Made by a program: the position numbers and the translations under genes
From: Candidatus Limnocylindrales bacterium
GTDB taxonomy: Bacteria; Chloroflexota; Limnocylindria; Limnocylindrales; CSP1-4
Assembly: GCA_038250445.1 (NCBI GenBank)
Contig: JBBSCI010000001.1
Location: forward strand, 1,524 to 65,523
Direction of reading: 5' to 3'
Length of the DNA: 64,000 nucleotides
In this document: piece after piece, positions 17,015 through 26,866 of the stretch
Layout of the letters: every line of letters begins with the position of its first letter
Numbering within the stretch: position 1 is the stretch's first letter
Notes under the pieces: model-generated
Databases searched by the model: none
Seen by the model: only the letters and a program-made list of their open reading frames with translations
Told to the model about the DNA's origin: nothing

Positions 17015-17827
17015 TCAGTCCTTGTATTTCCGGTCGACCCAGATGAGCGCGACCGTGAAAAACGACGCCGCCACCCCGACCACGGGGGCGAGCAGGCCGC
17101 CCGTTCCCGCGGCGACCGCGAGCCACGACGCGAGCGCGCCGAGGAGATTGAACGTGATCGCCGCGATGTTCTGGATCCGCATCACCCGATAGCCCGGCGC
17201 CAGCAAGCTGGCGATGCCAGCCGTCGCGTAGCCGAGGCAACCTGCGCCGGCAAGGCGGAAGACCCAGGTATCGGTGCCGGCCAGACCGAACAGGTTCGCG
17301 AACGGCCCGGGAGCGATGAGCGGCAGCAAGCCGAACGTGGCCGCGGAGAGCGTCGCGAGCGCGAGCACGACCCGCGCCGGCGTGTCGAGCCGGCGGCCGG
17401 CGTCGATCTCGGAGCCCTCGTCGCGGCGGAGCCAGTAAGCGGCGATCACCGTGAAGACAGCACCCGCCCCGACGACGAACGGGACGATCGGCTGCTTCGC
17501 GCCCGTCGCCAGCTCGTACGCGCTCGCCGCGAACGCCCCGATCGTGAACGTCAGCGTCGCGATGGCCGGGATTCGAATCTGGCGCCAGCCGGCGCCCCAC
17601 GCGAGGGCGATGATCGCTGCGATGAAGTAGCCCGTCGTGGCCGCCCCACCGAGCCGGTAGATGAGCGGATCGTCGCCGCTGAAGCCGAGCGCCGACGCGT
17701 ATGCAGCCGTCGCGAGCATCGGCACCAGGCCGAAAACGAGCCCGGCCGCCGCCTGGGCGATGAGCGTGAACCGGAAGGGGAGCGTGACCGCCTGGTCGCG
17801 TCGCCTACCGGAGTCGATTGCCGTCAT
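17015..17827 (-). CDS. Integral membrane protein with internal 4TM+4TM tandem duplication
   Basis: 270 aa, ~8 TM helices; residues ~25-135 align with ~150-265 (AAGLVFGLVPMLATAAYASALGFSG / SAATFGLLPLIAPGPFANLFGLAG...); downstream of small protein 17887..18318 (59-nt gap). Confidence 0.55.
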   Translation of the reverse strand: MTAIDSGRRRDQAVTLPFRFTLIAQAAAGLVFGLVPMLATAAYASALGFSGDDPLIYRLGGAATTGYFIAAIIALAWGAGWRQIRIPAIATLTFTIGAFAASAYELATGAKQPIVPFVVGAGAVFTVIAAYWLRRDEGSEIDAGRRLDTPARVVLALATLSAATFGLLPLIAPGPFANLFGLAGTDTWVFRLAGAGCLGYATAGIASLLAPGYRVMRIQNIAAITFNLLGALASWLAVAAGTGGLLAPVVGVAASFFTVALIWVDRKYKD

Positions 17828-17886: not shown

Positions 17887-18318
17887 TCAACCGCCGAACT
17901 TCTCCTGGTACTCGCGCGACAGCGCATCGCCGGCACTCTGGACGATCTTCCCGACGATCGGATTCACGATCACGCCTGTGACCGCGCCGACGACGCCGGG
18001 TAGATGCTTCACGAACCAGTCCCTCGTTGCGGCCATGACCGAGACGTTCGGCTCCCCGACGCTCGCGGCACCCTCGAGGTCGTCGATCCGCTCGAGTGCG
18101 CGATCCTTTAGCTCAGGAGGCGCCGTCTGCTGGATCGTCGCCCGCAGCCTCGCGAACTCGTCGCCGAGCATCGCAAGTTCCTGCTCGCTCGGTCGCCCGA
18201 CGATCGTCACGCGCGACACGGTCTGTTGGATGTCCGACCCGGCGGCGATCGCGCCCTCGCTGGTGCCCGAGACATTGACGTTGATTCTGCCCGGCTCGGG
18301 CTTCCTCTCATCGGTCAT
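17887..18318 (-). CDS. Small protein sharing N-terminal motif with adjacent STAND NTPase; C-terminal glycine-zipper hydrophobic helix
   Basis: 143 aa; residues 11-41 RINVNVSGTSEGAIAAGSDIQQTVSRVTIVG resemble residues ~43-75 of upstream 817-aa protein (ISVNQQGTNSGLIAAGMNINQTQVNVAVTLGG, ~50% identity over 30 aa); C-terminus LPGVVGAVTGVIVNPIVGKIVQSAG; start overlaps stop of upstream gene (ATGA at 18315-18318). Confidence 0.55.
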   Translation of the reverse strand: MTDERKPEPGRINVNVSGTSEGAIAAGSDIQQTVSRVTIVGRPSEQELAMLGDEFARLRATIQQTAPPELKDRALERIDDLEGAASVGEPNVSVMAATRDWFVKHLPGVVGAVTGVIVNPIVGKIVQSAGDALSREYQEKFGG

Positions 18319-20768
18319 TCGTATGCCTCCCGTGCGACAGGTATGGATCTTGACTTCCGAAGCCGGCCGGTGATCGCCGCGAGCACACCGAACAGGATCC
18401 CGAACACCGGAGTCGCGAGCAACGTGGCGTCACCGAAGAGCGCCGTCCCCGCGACCAGTCCGACGACGGCGATGCCGATGCCCGCGACCGCGCCCCCGAT
18501 CGGTGCCGAGACGAGATGCCCGGCCAGGCCGCGAATGAGCGCGAGCGCCAACCCGACGATCGCGAGGGTCGACCCGACGTAGAACGCTGGCGAGGCCGTC
18601 GCGTCGCCGGCGAGCTTGATCCAGCCACTGCCGGAGCACTGGCGGCCGTTGCCCTCGATCGATCCCGAGACGAAGTAGAGCCCGGGAACACGCAGGGCGT
18701 CGGGGATCAGGATCTCGTCGCGTCCGGCCGAGGCCAGCTGGCCTATCATTCCGCGCCAGATCGTCGGCAGTCCGAGCACGTCGACGTGCCAGCTCGCGGC
18801 GGACCCGCCCAGGTCACCCACGCTGCCCGTCCAGCGGATCGCCCGATTGGGGTCGATGTCGAGGGGATCGGCGTTGACGTCCGTCGCGTTGATCCGGCGC
18901 GCGCTGCCGTCGGGCGTCGAGTAGACGACCTCGAGCTGGCAGGGATCGGCTGGCCAGATGACGCCCCTCGCCCTGGGTTGCAGGGCGACCGACAGGATCA
19001 CCGCGGCGGCGCTGATCGCGACGAAGGCGGCGGCGAGGATCGCGCCGGGAGGACCGCCGAACCGCGGCTGACGGGGTGCGTCGGGCTTTGGCTTCGGGTC
19101 GGTTTGGCGCTGGTCCTCGTGCTTCGGCGGGTCGTCGCGCGGCGGGATGGGTGGCGCCAGCAGCGCATTTGTGAACTTTAGGTTCGCCGCCGCGATTGCC
19201 GCACCGCTCGCCCCACCGACCCGGTTCCATGCCTCGAATGACCGGGTGAACGCCTGGCTCGCGCCGATACCGTCGTCGGCGCCGAGCGCCTGGACCCCGG
19301 CCTGGTTCAGCGCCCATGCCACTTCTGCCTCGCGGCCCATCGTCCTGGCGGCCCGCAGGCACGAATCGGTGAGCCGTTCCCAACCGCCCCAGCGACCGGT
19401 GAGGGCAAAGGCGCCCTCGGTGGCGCGGCCGAGGGCGAGCGCCGTCTCGGGTCGGCCGGTCCGCTCCGCCCACCCGATCAACGACAGGATCGGCTCGGCC
19501 TCGTCGACGACCTCCTGCATGATCCGAGCAGGCGACGACGCCCAGGCCGTGTAGTCGCGGGCCGCCTGGAGCCGCACGTCATCGAGTCCGCCGCGCTCCG
19601 ACCAGGCGTCCTGGATGTCGCGATCCAGCCGTACCGCGGGCGAGGCAGCACGGGTGAGATGACGCTGCTGGAGGTCGGCGATTTCCGCCGCGGTCGCCTC
19701 GGGAACGAGGCTGGCGAGGCGCTCCGGAGACAGCGCGGCGCCGTCCATGGCGGCGATCGTCGCCACGACCTTCTGCTGGCCGGGCGAGAGGCGGGCGATG
19801 ATGGCCGAGGCCGGTCCGGCCGCGTCGGATCGTTCGAGCTCGGCGGCGAGCTCCGGCAGTGTTCTGCCGCGCCACTGGGCGTCCTGGACGTCGCGAATGA
19901 TCCGCCCCGGGTGGCCGTCGTGGACCGCCGCGATTTGCCGGCCGGCATCGATCTCGTCGGCTGTCAGGTCGCGGACAGAGCCGACGGCGGCACGGGCCGA
20001 TCGGATGAGCTCGAGCGCGGCGTCCGGAGTGAGCCCCTCGAGCTTGAAGGCACGCGCCTGGCCGACGGGCAGCGGGGCCTCCGACGCGACAAGGAACGTC
20101 GACAGGCCGGCGAGCCGGACGAGGTCGTCGATGCGGGCCTCGGCCGAGACGTCGTCGATGATGACGAGGGCGTCGAGCTTGCCGAGCGGCTCGGCAAGGC
20201 GGGAGCCGCTCAGGTGCATCTTGAACGAGACCGCGAAGAAGGTATCGACCAGGTCCTCGCCGAGCTCCTCCCAGGTCCTGGCGCGACCGAGGAGGTAGGC
20301 GACGTCGGGCGGCGCCCCGGCCGGCGGCTCGTGGACGAGATGCTGGAGCATGGCGCTCTTGCCGATTCCGTCCTCGCCGAAGCACGTCACGACCGGCGCC
20401 TGCCCGAGTGCCTCGCCGATTCCCCGAAGCTCGCCGTCGCGGCCGATCAGCCCCCGGAAGTTGCGGACCGCCGGCCTGACCGGCCGCGGCCGCGGTGCGA
20501 TCACAAACGCGGCCTCGAGGTTCGCGAGCGCGGCAGGATCGCCGCCGCCGAGGGTCACGGCGACGTTGACCTGGGTCTGGTTGATGTTCATCCCGGCCGC
20601 GATCAGCCCGCTGTTCGTGCCCTGCTGGTTGACCGAGATGCTTGTCGGCGGCGACGGTTGGGAGGATGTGGTCACAGGCGCCTCCTGCTGCTGTCGACCA
20701 CGGTCCACTGTCGGCGTCTCGGCGGCGTCGCGCGCGTGCCCACGTCTGCTGCCCGGCAATCTGGCCAC
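18315..20768 (-). CDS. Membrane-embedded STAND (NB-ARC/AP-ATPase-like) NTPase with helical (TPR-like) region, TM helix, extracytoplasmic Cys-containing domain and C-terminal TM bundle
   Basis: Walker A VVTCFGEDGIGKSAMLQHL, Walker B KLDALVIIDDVS, sensor-like STFLVASEAPLP...LEGLTPDAALELI; long alpha-helical middle; TM GAILAAAFVAISAAAVILSVAL (~res 590); ~130-aa domain with two Cys; 2-3 further TM helices; N-terminal motif shared with the downstream small protein; precise start uncertain (first 40 residues low-complexity). Confidence 0.7.
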   Translation of the reverse strand: MARLPGSRRGHARDAAETPTVDRGRQQQEAPVTTSSQPSPPTSISVNQQGTNSGLIAAGMNINQTQVNVAVTLGGGDPAALANLEAAFVIAPRPRPVRPAVRNFRGLIGRDGELRGIGEALGQAPVVTCFGEDGIGKSAMLQHLVHEPPAGAPPDVAYLLGRARTWEELGEDLVDTFFAVSFKMHLSGSRLAEPLGKLDALVIIDDVSAEARIDDLVRLAGLSTFLVASEAPLPVGQARAFKLEGLTPDAALELIRSARAAVGSVRDLTADEIDAGRQIAAVHDGHPGRIIRDVQDAQWRGRTLPELAAELERSDAAGPASAIIARLSPGQQKVVATIAAMDGAALSPERLASLVPEATAAEIADLQQRHLTRAASPAVRLDRDIQDAWSERGGLDDVRLQAARDYTAWASSPARIMQEVVDEAEPILSLIGWAERTGRPETALALGRATEGAFALTGRWGGWERLTDSCLRAARTMGREAEVAWALNQAGVQALGADDGIGASQAFTRSFEAWNRVGGASGAAIAAANLKFTNALLAPPIPPRDDPPKHEDQRQTDPKPKPDAPRQPRFGGPPGAILAAAFVAISAAAVILSVALQPRARGVIWPADPCQLEVVYSTPDGSARRINATDVNADPLDIDPNRAIRWTGSVGDLGGSAASWHVDVLGLPTIWRGMIGQLASAGRDEILIPDALRVPGLYFVSGSIEGNGRQCSGSGWIKLAGDATASPAFYVGSTLAIVGLALALIRGLAGHLVSAPIGGAVAGIGIAVVGLVAGTALFGDATLLATPVFGILFGVLAAITGRLRKSRSIPVAREAYE

Positions 20769-21505: not shown

Positions 21506-23896
21506 ATGGCATCCATCGGCGTCATGGATAAGCGCGCCGCAGCGAAGGCTTCCGCTGAGACCGAGCGCCGTCGCAAGCACATCCCGGGCTTTGAAGTCGA
21601 TTGCGGCACCGGTCTGGAAGTCCCCCACGTCGGGATCGTCTTCGTTCACGGCATCGGCGCGCAGGAGCCCGGTGAGACGTTGCTCGATTGGGGCGGGGCA
21701 ATGATCGGCTTGCTCCTGGACAAACGCATCGCCCAGAAGACCGATGGCGATCCGGTCATCTCATGCGATCTGGATCCCTCTCCAGGGAAGTCGCGATATA
21801 TCGAGGTTGAGTTACCGAAGGCGTCTGCAAACGACGGAACGACGCTTCCGCGAAAGCACTGGATTCTGACCGAGGCGTGGTGGGCGCAGCGGGTGCGGCC
21901 ACCGCCGTTCGGCCAGATGGCGGACTGGCTCGGACCGCACGGCGCGATCAGCAGAATCGTGCTGGCGATCCTGCCGCAGGAGAAACGCAGGCACAACCCG
22001 AGACTGAGGCCGACCGCCAAGGAGTACGAGCTGAGGCGTGACCCCGTCCTCGGGCCTGAAGAGGCGGCCGAGCACGGACACGTCCCCGGTCGGATCCTCA
22101 GCCCCGACCACCCGATCGTGGACGCCCTGCGTACAGTGGGCCGGGCGAGCGCCGGACTCTATCTTCAGGCGGTATCGGCGCTGATCCTCGTCATATACGG
22201 GGCTCTTCGGACGATCGAGAAGCTCCTGCCGATCGGGCCCCTCAAGAATGGCGCCCTGACCCGGCCGATCGACAACTTCATGCTCGACTGGTTCGGGGAC
22301 GTATACGTCCTCCTGTCCGATCCGGCTCAAGCTGCGAGCGTCCGTGGTCGACTCGTGGACGCCATCCAAGACCTTCATGCAGCCAATTGCGAGACGGTCG
22401 TCGTTGTCGCGCATTCGGGCGGTGCCATCGTGAGTTACATGATGCTCGCCGATCCCGCGTACAAGCATCTTCGAGTCGATACCTTCATCACCCTTGGCGA
22501 GGGCCTGAACCTGGCCTGGCGATTGACGACTGGCCCGGACAAGAAGCTGGACGCGGAAACGTTCAACCGATATCGGCGCCTGTACTCCAGCGTCTTCGAC
22601 GATCGGCCGGAGTTGAGCTGGCACGACTTCTGGGCATCTGAGGATCCAGCTCCGGCTGGGGTGTTAGATCCCTACGAACGAACCCTGGATCAAGCGGGCC
22701 TCGGCCGAGTCCATAGCCACGCGATCTGGAATCGGCTCAGTTTCGCCGAGGACCATGGTGGCTACTGGGATAACGACGAGGAGTTCCTCCTGCCCATGCT
22801 TCGCCTGATCGACGGCGAACCAAGTGGTGGATCTGGGAGGTTCGAGACCGCGGCGCCGACCACCGATCCGTCCAATCGCCGCCGCCGTCGCCTTTCGGTG
22901 CTTTCCATCGGCCGTCAACTGTCGCTGGTCGGAGCGACGGCCTCGATCGTGACGGCATTTGCTTTGAACGGCTCAGGATCGATCGACGGATTGGCCAACA
23001 CGGTCGCGCACGCTTGGAGCGCGGTTCCAGGAGCCCAGATCACGAGTGATTTGCTCAACGGCGTTAGGGCCCAGAACCTCGCTGCATCGTTGCCTTGGAT
23101 GGTCCTCGCGCAAGCCGGCGTGTCGATCATCGCGGCAGTTATCGGTCTGATCACCCTGTTCGCTCTCATCGCGCCAGCTGAACGACCGATTCCATGGGCT
23201 CGAAGCGGAGGGTCCCGGATCCAATCGGTGCTTGAAATTGGTCCCCTGATCGTTGGGATTCCTGTCGCCATCGCCGTTGTGATTGCCGGCGTCAGATACA
23301 TCATTCGATCGAACCCGGAAGGCGCTCAGGTCGGTCTTTGGCTCGTTGTCGCTACCGCGGAGTTCGTGGTTTTGACCCTCTTCGTGTTGGTCATGTTCGG
23401 GTCGCCGTTCTCGACCGAGACGACGAGCCGAAGGTCCTCAAAACGTGATCTGATCGAGATGTCGTTGACGATCGTCGCGTTGATTCTCGTGAGCTTTCTG
23501 GCAATCGCCCCGTTCGTCTCGATCATCCTGTATCCCGAAGTTGGCCAGCTCGTCCTTGGGTCCCTGAGCGGGTATGCAGCCTTCAGCGTCGTTGGCCGCA
23601 TCGGGACCTGGCGTTGGAACGTTTGGGACGGCCGCGAACGCGTCGCGCTTCGCGCGGGAAAGGACAGCTACCCTCCGCTTCGGCGGGTCGTCATCCAGTT
23701 CTCGTTGCTACTCGCGATCGTGACGTGCCTGTTCCTGGCCGTCGTCCTCGAAAGTGACGCCCTGGCGATGACTGCTGCGACTGGCATCGGAATCTCTGTC
23801 CTGCTCGGCGTGGCTGTTGACGTCTTCAACGCGGCGCATCAGGAGCGAACCGCACCAACCGTGATGGGGCCCCGCGCGAGCGCATACAAGATGTAG
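21506..23896 (+). CDS. Membrane-anchored alpha/beta-hydrolase (lipase/esterase-like) with ~8-TM C-terminal domain
   Basis: N-terminal hydrolase fold: VGIVFVHGIGAQEPGE (oxyanion HG), nucleophile elbow VVVAHSGGAIVSY (GxSxG); C-terminal half is multi-pass membrane; region appears lower in GC than flanks by eye. Confidence 0.7.
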   Translation: MASIGVMDKRAAAKASAETERRRKHIPGFEVDCGTGLEVPHVGIVFVHGIGAQEPGETLLDWGGAMIGLLLDKRIAQKTDGDPVISCDLDPSPGKSRYIEVELPKASANDGTTLPRKHWILTEAWWAQRVRPPPFGQMADWLGPHGAISRIVLAILPQEKRRHNPRLRPTAKEYELRRDPVLGPEEAAEHGHVPGRILSPDHPIVDALRTVGRASAGLYLQAVSALILVIYGALRTIEKLLPIGPLKNGALTRPIDNFMLDWFGDVYVLLSDPAQAASVRGRLVDAIQDLHAANCETVVVVAHSGGAIVSYMMLADPAYKHLRVDTFITLGEGLNLAWRLTTGPDKKLDAETFNRYRRLYSSVFDDRPELSWHDFWASEDPAPAGVLDPYERTLDQAGLGRVHSHAIWNRLSFAEDHGGYWDNDEEFLLPMLRLIDGEPSGGSGRFETAAPTTDPSNRRRRRLSVLSIGRQLSLVGATASIVTAFALNGSGSIDGLANTVAHAWSAVPGAQITSDLLNGVRAQNLAASLPWMVLAQAGVSIIAAVIGLITLFALIAPAERPIPWARSGGSRIQSVLEIGPLIVGIPVAIAVVIAGVRYIIRSNPEGAQVGLWLVVATAEFVVLTLFVLVMFGSPFSTETTSRRSSKRDLIEMSLTIVALILVSFLAIAPFVSIILYPEVGQLVLGSLSGYAAFSVVGRIGTWRWNVWDGRERVALRAGKDSYPPLRRVVIQFSLLLAIVTCLFLAVVLESDALAMTAATGIGISVLLGVAVDVFNAAHQERTAPTVMGPRASAYKM

Positions 23897-24062: not shown

Positions 24063-24305
24063 TTGATCGCGACCGTCCGCTGGGCCGACGTCGACGAGGC
24101 GATTGCGCGCCGCGCAGGCGCCCTGGGCCGAACATGGCGACGCAGTCAGCAGGGCCTCGCGACCGCGGACCTCATCATCGCTGCGACCGCTGCGGAGCTC
24201 GGGCTCGAGCTGGCGACGCTGAACATCAAGCATTTCCCGATGTTCAAGGGTCTCCAGGCACCCTATCTCGGTAGCGGAGGCAAGCGATGGCGACCTACGT
24301 TCTGA
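24063..24305 (+). pseudogene. PIN-domain (VapC-like) toxin C-terminal remnant
   Basis: 80-aa ORF from TTG; ADLIIAATAAELGLELATLNIKHFPMF matches VapC C-terminal catalytic region; in-frame stop 23988-23990 removes the N-terminal half; no antitoxin gene upstream. Confidence 0.5.
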
Positions 24306-26414: not shown

Positions 26415-26866
26415 TCACGTGCTCCACTGCTTGGGCTTGATGGTTGTCTCTCAACGCCATCTTCCCAGTTCAGATGAACACCTGATTCGTCGTATCAGCG
26501 CTCTCTCACCAGCGGCTCATCGGTGGATCCGGGCTTAGTTGCCTACTTCGACCAGGCGCCCGGGACAGCCCTTCCGGGGCCGTCGGATCTTTACCACTTG
26601 CGACCGGCTCCAAGCGCGTAGATGAAGCTAGCCAATGCGGCAACGGTCAGGAGAGCGCGTATCGCCTCGGACCGGAACCTGTTCTTCAAGACTGACATCC
26701 AGAAACCCCTACTGTCGATTGACGTTGGAGGTCCGGCAACCGGGCTGTCTTCCTATCGGAAGATCCCTGGCTTTGCGTCTCCGCCTCGCGACGGGTTTGC
26801 CCAAACGGCCCTGCCGGCAGCGATTTCGCTGCCGGCCTCACCATCGGTTGCCGATGTGGGCGATCG

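Follow-up and report, generated by a model that had tools for sequence, protein, structure and literature searches.

We analysed a stretch of 64,000 nucleotides (referred to below as the window) from the Candidatus Limnocylindrales bacterium assembly GCA_038250445.1 (contig JBBSCI010000001.1, positions 1,524 to 65,523 of the forward strand), in which a minus-strand gene for a STAND ATPase with a membrane-embedded C-terminal part is followed by a gene for a small protein of 143 residues. An initial annotation of this DNA had described the larger gene as the open reading frame (ORF) 18315-20768, and this frame is present on the minus strand, with 817 aa in its maximal reading from the first GTG. 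The true start is most likely the internal GTG at 20675, which gives a gene of 786 aa at 18315-20675, because an AGGAGG sequence lies 5 nt upstream of this codon and because the public product (P0001; NCBI and Logan protein collection), which is 100% identical, starts there. Residue numbers in this text follow the 817-aa reading unless the 786-aa numbering is stated. The stop codon of the STAND gene overlaps the ATG of the next ORF (17887-18318, minus strand) as ATGA. The G+C content of the window is ~68% and does not change abruptly at this locus, and a search of genome contigs with the whole protein gave no match. The features of the two genes are collected in Table 1.

The three sequence marks of STAND/NB-ARC ATPases are found in the protein: a Walker A motif of the form GxxxxGK[ST], a Walker B motif of the form hhhhDD and a GxP motif. 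In the homolog alignments A4 and A7, Walker A has invariant or almost invariant G, G and K residues, and the DD pair of Walker B is conserved. Of the GxP motif, every sequence of A4 has both G254 and P256 (786-aa numbering), and every sequence of A7 has P256. The Pfam search with the window ATPase returned only sub-threshold matches, to AAA_16, AAA_22 and nSTAND6, and the protein is therefore a divergent member whose assignment is settled by its homologs. A relative with 28% identity (P0006) passes the Pfam cut-off for NB-ARC, and the best PDB matches of a family profile built from 11 homologs are NB-ARC resistance proteins of plants (9jbn, E 5e-6; 9qlv, E 7e-5). When 23 family members were searched against Pfam, NB-ARC was found in 15 (best E 5e-14), NACHT, more weakly, in 10 and TPR_12 in nine. 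Judged by this homology, the protein is a P-loop STAND ATPase of the NB-ARC-like kind, and its TPR-like helical arm is conserved and short (~3 repeats).

A Kyte-Doolittle (KD) hydropathy scan with a 19-residue window gave exactly four peaks, at residues 576-594 (2.59), 735-753 (2.03), 760-778 (2.26) and 781-799 (2.19), and never exceeded 1.4 in the rest of the protein. The first peak corresponds to the transmembrane (TM) helix that the initial annotation had placed near residue 590, after the ATPase and helical part, and the ~130-aa segment with two Cys that it had described next is recognised as residues 598-727; the protein has only two other Cys, at 129 and 470. The Gly/Ala-rich C-terminal helices, which it had counted as "2-3", are three both in the scan and in the structural model. 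This AlphaFold model of the C-terminal module, a check that the annotation itself had suggested, was computed from the family alignment and has a predicted local distance difference test (pLDDT) score of 81.5 and a predicted TM-score (pTM) of 0.74; it consists of TM1, a beta-sandwich of nine strands and three long helices. When the model was searched against the PDB with Foldseek, only generic immunoglobulin-like (Ig-like) or E-set sandwiches were found (E 2e-4 to 1e-2, TM-score 0.4-0.5), the best fold matches being RhoGDI, CARDB and PKD, beside GM2-activator; the modelled fold class is clear as Ig-like, yet it implies no function. The numbers of K plus R (4 before TM1, 2 after TM1, 1 in the loop between TM2 and TM3, 0 in the loop between TM3 and TM4, and 5 in the C-tail) obey the positive-inside rule, and this distribution fits an arrangement in which both termini are inside. 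A cytoplasmic location is predicted, on firm grounds, for the N-terminal region, the NB-ARC-like ATPase and the short TPR arm, with the three C-terminal TM helices returning a basic C-terminus to the inside.

The most informative evidence on the membrane part came from a search of the last 250 aa (residues 568-817) against 1.84 billion representative proteins, which met another suggestion of the initial annotation, namely to look for the extracytoplasmic domain in other proteins. We found 82 relatives at E<=1e-3, of which 30 reached E<=1e-10, and most of them are free-standing proteins of ~220-270 aa that align with the module from end to end, with 28-38% identity to residues 568-817 over their full length. 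Both Cys are invariant in an alignment of 28 sequences, as are several Gly in the helices, where a Pro is nearly invariant in addition. The window module thus has the full-length homology, the two invariant Cys and the three C-terminal TM helices of this family, for which no Pfam or NCBIfam model was found. In place of TM1, 25 of 27 free-standing members carry a Sec-type signal peptide with a basic start, a hydrophobic core and an AxA|F site ~5 residues ahead of the first Cys, and the two exceptions appear to be truncated at the N-terminus. The window protein differs from them in having the ATPase and in lacking a cleavable signal peptide, since no AxA cleavage site is found at its TM1 (QPRARG). 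The module of the window protein was evidently taken whole from this secreted-and-anchored family.

Because the free-standing relatives carry the same domain behind a signal peptide, the 2-Cys domain of the window protein is expected to lie outside, and this homology is the strongest case for its export that can be made short of experiment. The extracytoplasmic position proposed by the initial annotation is supported also by the invariant Cys, the charge distribution, the model and the exported domains of relatives described below, and we regard a topology with the N-terminus in, the 2-Cys domain out and the C-terminus in as highly probable. For the 2-Cys domain itself, we infer a sensor role and a disulfide.

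Copies of the free-standing family in genomes, found by scanning contigs with a three-sequence alignment, belong to metagenome-assembled genomes (MAGs) of Chloroflexota (Limnocylindria and Chloroflexia) and Dormibacterota. In Chloroflexota MAGs (L004, L005, L007, L009 and L010) they stand in a conserved neighbourhood with a typA/bipA-like GTPase gene, a MobA-like gene and a cysteine desulfurase gene, and this synteny hints at a housekeeping role in the cell envelope. Four longer members (P0013, P0015, P0019 and P0021; 458-566 aa) continue past the third TM helix with a Pro-rich linker and a conserved ~150-aa cytoplasmic domain (ending ...VASVSVT..GI.I.T), and the membrane module is therefore coupled to a cytoplasmic domain in other lineages too.

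The joining of this module to the ATPase is found again in two independent short metagenome contigs (L015 and L016), which have the same order of arm, linker, TM1, 2-Cys domain, three TM helices and small gene, so that an artefact of gene fusion was rejected. Identity to the window by region is 40-76% for L015 and 48-65% for L016, except for the short tail at the C-terminus (9% in L016); conservation of the ectodomain (65% and 49%, respectively) is slightly below that of the arm or the TM helices, the Pro-rich linker has 74% and 48% identity, and both Cys are invariant here as well. No further case of module and ATPase in one protein was found among the 82 relatives, and the module was found in none of 80 metagenome loci collected with the small protein as described below.

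These 80 loci were kept from a metagenome scan seeded with the small partner protein, which gave 177 relatives, and the adjacent frame, wherever it is long enough, encodes an ATPase of the family (profile E 1e-105 to 1e-147). The G+C content of the family loci ranges from 42% to 78%, indicating that the family is taxonomically broad. All 25 full-length members have one strong TM segment ~400-440 aa past Walker A, and the 140-700 residues that follow this single helix are highly variable and open with Pro/Thr-rich linkers. The domains found there are LysM (E 1e-11), fn3, Ig of the HYDIN/VesB type, Ig_Rha78A_N, CARDB-like and Cys-rich domains, which are typical of exported proteins and thus support the outside location. 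The close homologs P0002-P0005 and L002 have 38-40% identity to the window ATPase over its first two thirds and share its N-terminus, ATPase and arm, which are followed by one TM helix and by choice-of-anchor-D and CARDB domains. Distant relatives of ~500 aa (P0007-P0009) stop after the arm, and P0007, the one whose sequence was read, has no TM helix. The LysM domain lies past the TM helix in locus L038 (1038-3794, plus strand), and other metagenome members have stacked Cys-containing fn3/Ig-like repeats at this place; such ends suggest recognition of peptidoglycan or surface glycans in parts of the family. The 2-Cys/3-TM module of the window protein occupies the position at which the rest of the family holds these varied extracytoplasmic domains, and this ending is a rare variant on a common chassis composed of motif, NB-ARC, short TPR, TM helix and variable exported region. 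The initial annotation had presented a TM-bearing STAND protein as an exception among mostly soluble ones; the TM helices are real, but the protein belongs to a large family whose members are anchored by a TM helix.

The initial annotation had mentioned neither the N-terminal motif nor the partner gene, although the system probably has its output side in these two. Homologs of the partner adjoin a family STAND gene in L002, L011, L012, L013, L015, L016 and L017 and in the 34 metagenome loci whose adjacent frame was long enough to judge. The STAND gene is upstream of the small gene in 33 of these 34, and L017 and L070 have the opposite order; the STAND genes are nearly always paired with a ~140-aa motif-sharing protein encoded downstream. 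The first ~55 residues of ATPase and partner are homologous, and consist of a motif of ~25 aa (family consensus I.G.VSGQVAVG..I.Q) and a short helix of the type P..EEL..L..F. The two window copies, SVNQQGTNSGLIAAGMNINQTQVN and NVNVSGTSEGAIAAGSDIQQTVSR, are identical at 12 of 24 residues, and a hidden Markov model (HMM) of the motif run over the 64-kb window detected these two only (next best E 4.5). In 24 non-redundant pairs, motif identity is 0.50 within pairs versus 0.44 between pairs, with the observed value reached by one of 100,000 permutations, and in the window lineage both copies have changed together from SGQVAVG to G.IAAG. These results, from pairs not corrected for phylogeny, are suggestive of co-evolution of the two copies. 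The ATPase copy has no charged residue and contains 61% N/Q/S/T/G, the two copies spanning 48-61%. In the AlphaFold model of the partner monomer, the N-terminus (residues 1-38) is disordered (pLDDT <50) and the rest is a confident five-helix bundle, whose most conserved segment, GVVGAVTGVIVNPIVGKIV, may be hydrophobic enough to form a latent membrane helix. The partner had no match in Pfam, PADLOC or PHROGs, and a literature search for the motif string returned no papers. All-against-all BLAST of neighbours in the 80 loci revealed no recurrent third gene.

Table 1. Features of the STAND gene and its partner gene in the window (all on the minus strand; residue numbers of the ATPase refer to the 817-aa reading).
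Feature	Position	Strand	Remark
STAND (NB-ARC-like) ATPase gene	18315..20675	-	786 aa from GTG 20675; maximal ORF to 20768
Shine-Dalgarno sequence AGGAGG	20681..20686	-	5 nt upstream of internal GTG 20675
ATPase N-terminal shared motif SISVNQQGTNSGLIAAGMNINQTQVNVAVTLGG (residues 43-75)	20544..20642	-	Aligns with partner N-terminus and all family members
Nucleotide-binding oligomerisation module and short TPR-like helical arm (residues 103-538)	19155..20462	-	Profile and domain matches
Walker A GEDGIGKS (residues 131-138)	20355..20378	-	Read from sequence
Walker B LVIIDD (residues 201-206)	20151..20168	-	Read from sequence
GxP motif G285-H-P287	19908..19916	-	Sequence; helical domain after P-loop fold
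Pro-rich, charged linker of 34 residues (residues 539-572)	19053..19154	-	Sequence
TM1, predicted signal-anchor helix (residues 573-597)	18978..19052	-	KD 2.59; AlphaFold helix; replaces signal peptide of free-standing homologs
Predicted extracytoplasmic Ig-like beta-sandwich domain (residues 598-727)	18588..18977	-	AlphaFold, nine strands, pLDDT ~70-90
Cys610	18939-18941	-	In Ig-like domain between TM1 and TM2
Cys711	18636-18638	-	In Ig-like domain between TM1 and TM2
Three Gly/Ala-rich TM helices (residues 728-802)	18363..18587	-	KD peaks; AlphaFold helices, pLDDT >90
Basic C-tail, predicted cytoplasmic	18318-18362	-	5 K/R
Partner gene, 143 aa	17887..18318	-	Start overlaps STAND stop (ATGA)
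Partner copy of motif RINVNVSGTSEGAIAAGSDIQQTVSRVTIVG (residues 11-41)	18196..18288	-	Alignment and motif HMM; pLDDT <50 in monomer model
Partner five-helix bundle (residues 45-141)	17896..18186	-	AlphaFold, pLDDT ~90
Most conserved hydrophobic Gly-rich segment GVVGAVTGVIVNPIVGKIV (partner residues 108-126)	17941-17997	-	Alignment; KD 1.76

Both TM-bearing bacterial STAND proteins and motif-paired genes for NLR (nucleotide-binding, leucine-rich-repeat) type proteins and effectors are already known. In filamentous bacteria, BASS amyloid motifs link NLR-like NB-ARC/TPR proteins to partners with a Bell domain (Dyrka et al., 10.1101/2020.01.06.895854). As in those pairs, an NB-ARC-type ATPase carries here a ~25-aa, G/N/Q/S/V-rich motif at its extreme N-terminus, and the motif occurs also on a small helical protein encoded by an adjacent collinear, often overlapping gene; a short motif common to the NLR N-terminus and a terminus of the adjacent protein is seen in all 24 non-redundant pairs. 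The sensor end, however, is a TM helix with exported domains here and a long array of cytoplasmic TPR or WD repeats there. The partner here has its motif at the N-terminus and is encoded after the NLR-like gene, whereas theirs has it at the C-terminus and is encoded before; moreover, the partner here has no detected similarity to solved structures, and is not a Bell, HeLo-like or other known effector with a C-terminal motif. Its layout of a disordered motif and a confident helical bundle is that of known amyloid-controlled effectors (10.1101/2020.01.06.895854, 10.1101/2024.11.07.622273). The Bab/Agp antiphage system of E. coli (10.1101/2024.11.07.622273) likewise consists of two genes, whose products, a large sensor and a small helical protein that targets membranes, have a terminal motif in common, but the motif there is BASS11 and lies at the C-terminus of Bab.

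For bNACHT proteins with a "TM region" C-terminus, sensing of signals within the membrane or in the periplasm has been proposed (Kibby et al., 10.1101/2022.07.19.500537, citing Kaur et al. 2020, 2021), and these proteins resemble the present family as STAND ATPases with TM segments in the C-terminal part. They differ in belonging to the NACHT clade, and are described with multiple TM regions that at times lie inside the NACHT module; the present ATPase is NB-ARC-like, one TM helix precedes folded exported domains (in the window protein, the Ig-like domain and three TM helices), and the output would pass through the motif-sharing partner. For STAND targets diversified by diversity-generating retroelements, a periplasmic position of lectin domains has been predicted. 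The KAP NTPases, as characterised in papers citing Aravind et al. 2004, are STAND-related P-loop NTPases with TM helices inside the NTPase domain; the window protein shares with them the combination of such an NTPase with TM helices, but we have rejected it as a KAP NTPase, because no hydrophobic peak occurs between Walker A and residue 570 and the TM helices come after the arm. In our searches of the open-access literature, neither this NB-ARC family with its folded exported domains nor its N-terminal motif pair, the partner fold or the 2-Cys Ig/3-TM family was found described, and known anti-phage systems in PADLOC-DB 2.0 gave no match at E<=1 for the ATPase, its partner or any of three neighbours.

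We consider it somewhat more probable than its opposite that the membrane-anchored, NLR-like STAND ATPase and the small downstream protein form a two-gene module, and we regard the odds as even that the two work as sensor and partner. The exported end would be the receptor, because it is variable, of ligand-binding type and placed where soluble NLRs hold their repeat sensor. The outside domain would bind an envelope or external ligand, and clustering driven by the ligand, rather than rigid allostery, would carry the signal inwards, since the linker is flexible. Clustering would lead to ATP-dependent oligomerisation of the ATPase modules, on which the N-terminal motifs would assemble as a beta-rich template and capture the partner's motif of the same type, in a manner similar to amyloid or prion-like signalling by NLRs. 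The capture would switch the helical bundle of the partner, whose conserved hydrophobic Gly-rich helix may insert into the membrane, so that the cell would die or stop growing. This scheme parallels the amyloid signalling of NLRs with HeLo or Bell effectors and of Bab/Agp, while differing from it in motif position, gene order, partner fold and motif family. Its amyloid-type templating through the shared motif is a tentative proposal. We put forward with still more reserve, as a rather unlikely reading when taken as a whole, that the family is one of "outside-in" NLRs, in which receptor cassettes swapped between lineages cluster the NB-ARC and template the small partner into a membrane-active executioner. 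With equal reserve, the cassettes would be LysM, fn3, Ig-like or the borrowed 2-Cys Ig/3-TM module, and the cues would be envelope damage, phage or surface molecules of foreign cells.

Several observations weigh against this scheme. The 34-residue flexible linker makes direct conformational coupling unlikely, and the free-standing homologs of the module adjoin housekeeping genes (typA, cysteine desulfurase), from which it follows that the module natively serves some purpose other than immunity. Both proteins carry the motif at the N-terminus, while in every bacterial or fungal pair described it is at the C-terminus of the effector. Membership in BASS2, examined with an ad hoc HMM made from 34 published BASS2 motifs and covering BASS2 only, was rejected (best E 0.06 among 115 N-termini). 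Motif copies are modestly more alike within pairs than between them, and this excess could be inflated by the common descent of closely related loci. The partner bundle has no fold match in the PDB or BFVD, and no similarity to a solved cell-death execution domain was found. The window ATPase has no Pfam match at E<=0.001 and no match in PADLOC or PHROGs, and its neighbourhood is no recognisable defence island.

The linker and the housekeeping neighbourhoods would equally suit an explanation in which the membrane module only anchors or localises the protein, and the ATPase senses a cytoplasmic or inner-face cue through its TPR arm; this explanation could also draw on the distant relatives that end after the arm, one of them without a TM helix. 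We hold it to be distinctly unlikely, because the region past the TM helix is the most variable of the family and is built of ligand-binding-type exported domains, which is the pattern of a receptor end, and because the TPR arm is short and conserved, in contrast to the long variable repeat sensors of soluble NLRs. The bundle of three helices might instead be the effector itself, so that oligomerisation of the ATPase assembles a Gly-rich pore, with the small protein acting as a regulator or as a partner of antitoxin-like kind. The helices are indeed rich in Gly/Ala with invariant Gly and Pro positions, and some Avs and bNACHT proteins use TM segments as effector domains. Such a pore is nevertheless very improbable in our judgement: all 25 other full-length members have a single TM helix with exported domains and no bundle, so that the bundle cannot be the common output of the family, and the same bundle is present in free-standing proteins that have no ATPase.

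Anchoring alone and the three-helix pore are thus the weaker rivals, and the serious one concerns the motif, which may mediate an ordinary stable heteromer (for example, by beta-strand addition) with the small protein as a constitutive subunit, an inhibitor or a chaperone. The ATGA overlap suggests translational coupling and a fixed stoichiometry; the motif has no BASS2 match, its position is unlike that in all described amyloid pairs, and it is highly conserved throughout the family, while known BASS pairs are often pair-specific. On the other hand, the composition of the motif, with its 48-61% N/Q/S/T/G, polar/hydrophobic alternation, Gly at fixed spacing and uncharged ATPase copy, fits beta-arch amyloid motifs, and the motif is disordered in the model of the partner monomer, both of which are suggestive. 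A stable heteromer appears to us somewhat unlikely, about to the same degree as the complete "outside-in" proposal.

In plants and animals, NLR-type switches monitor the cell interior, and separate surface receptors monitor the outside. An NB-ARC switch with exported, cassette-like receptors in one bacterial family would show that both tasks can be combined in one protein, and would offer a simple two-gene system for studying how a signal crosses the membrane and triggers STAND oligomerisation. The conserved motif, common to the ATPase and a small partner without a fold match, makes a candidate for a new link in signalling, of amyloid type or at any rate homotypic. If the "outside-in" proposal is true, the logic of surface receptors and that of NLRs would be united, and amyloid signalling would gain a new motif class and a new effector fold. 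The analysis also defines an unannotated membrane family with a signal peptide, a 2-Cys Ig-like domain and three TM helices, which is conserved in Chloroflexota and Dormibacterota.

When the ATPase, the partner and three neighbouring genes were searched against Pfam, NCBIfam, PADLOC and PHROGs, only sub-threshold P-loop matches were obtained. A gene starting 59 nt past the partner gene on the same strand (17015-17827, minus strand) encodes a 270-aa membrane protein with two similar 4-TM halves and no family match; this 8-TM protein was rejected as a conserved third gene, and is probably not part of the module, as it is absent downstream in L015. On the other side, at 21506-23896 (plus strand), lies the gene of a 796-aa protein with the alpha/beta-hydrolase motifs VHGIG (oxyanion-hole-like) and AHSGG (nucleophile elbow), a PGAP1-like match below threshold and, at the C-terminal end, a long polytopic membrane region. 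The protein has weak similarity (pairwise E 1e-4) to the 342-aa product of the third gene in the L012 and L013 operons, which in L013 is placed after the pair of STAND and small-protein genes and before an S41 peptidase gene. This lipase-like neighbour was rejected as a conserved effector, since it shares only VHG.G and AHS.G with the third gene of L013 and neither of the two is present in L002 or L011, and the link may be coincidental. An 80-aa ORF at 24063-24305 (plus strand) resembles by eye the C-terminal half of a PIN/VapC toxin (…ADLIIAATAAELGLELATLNIKHF…) and may be a gene remnant. The sole Rfam match in the window is a cyclic di-GMP-I riboswitch aptamer (RF01051) at 26732-26811 (minus strand), which is a full-length match of 61.9 bits against a gathering score of 35.

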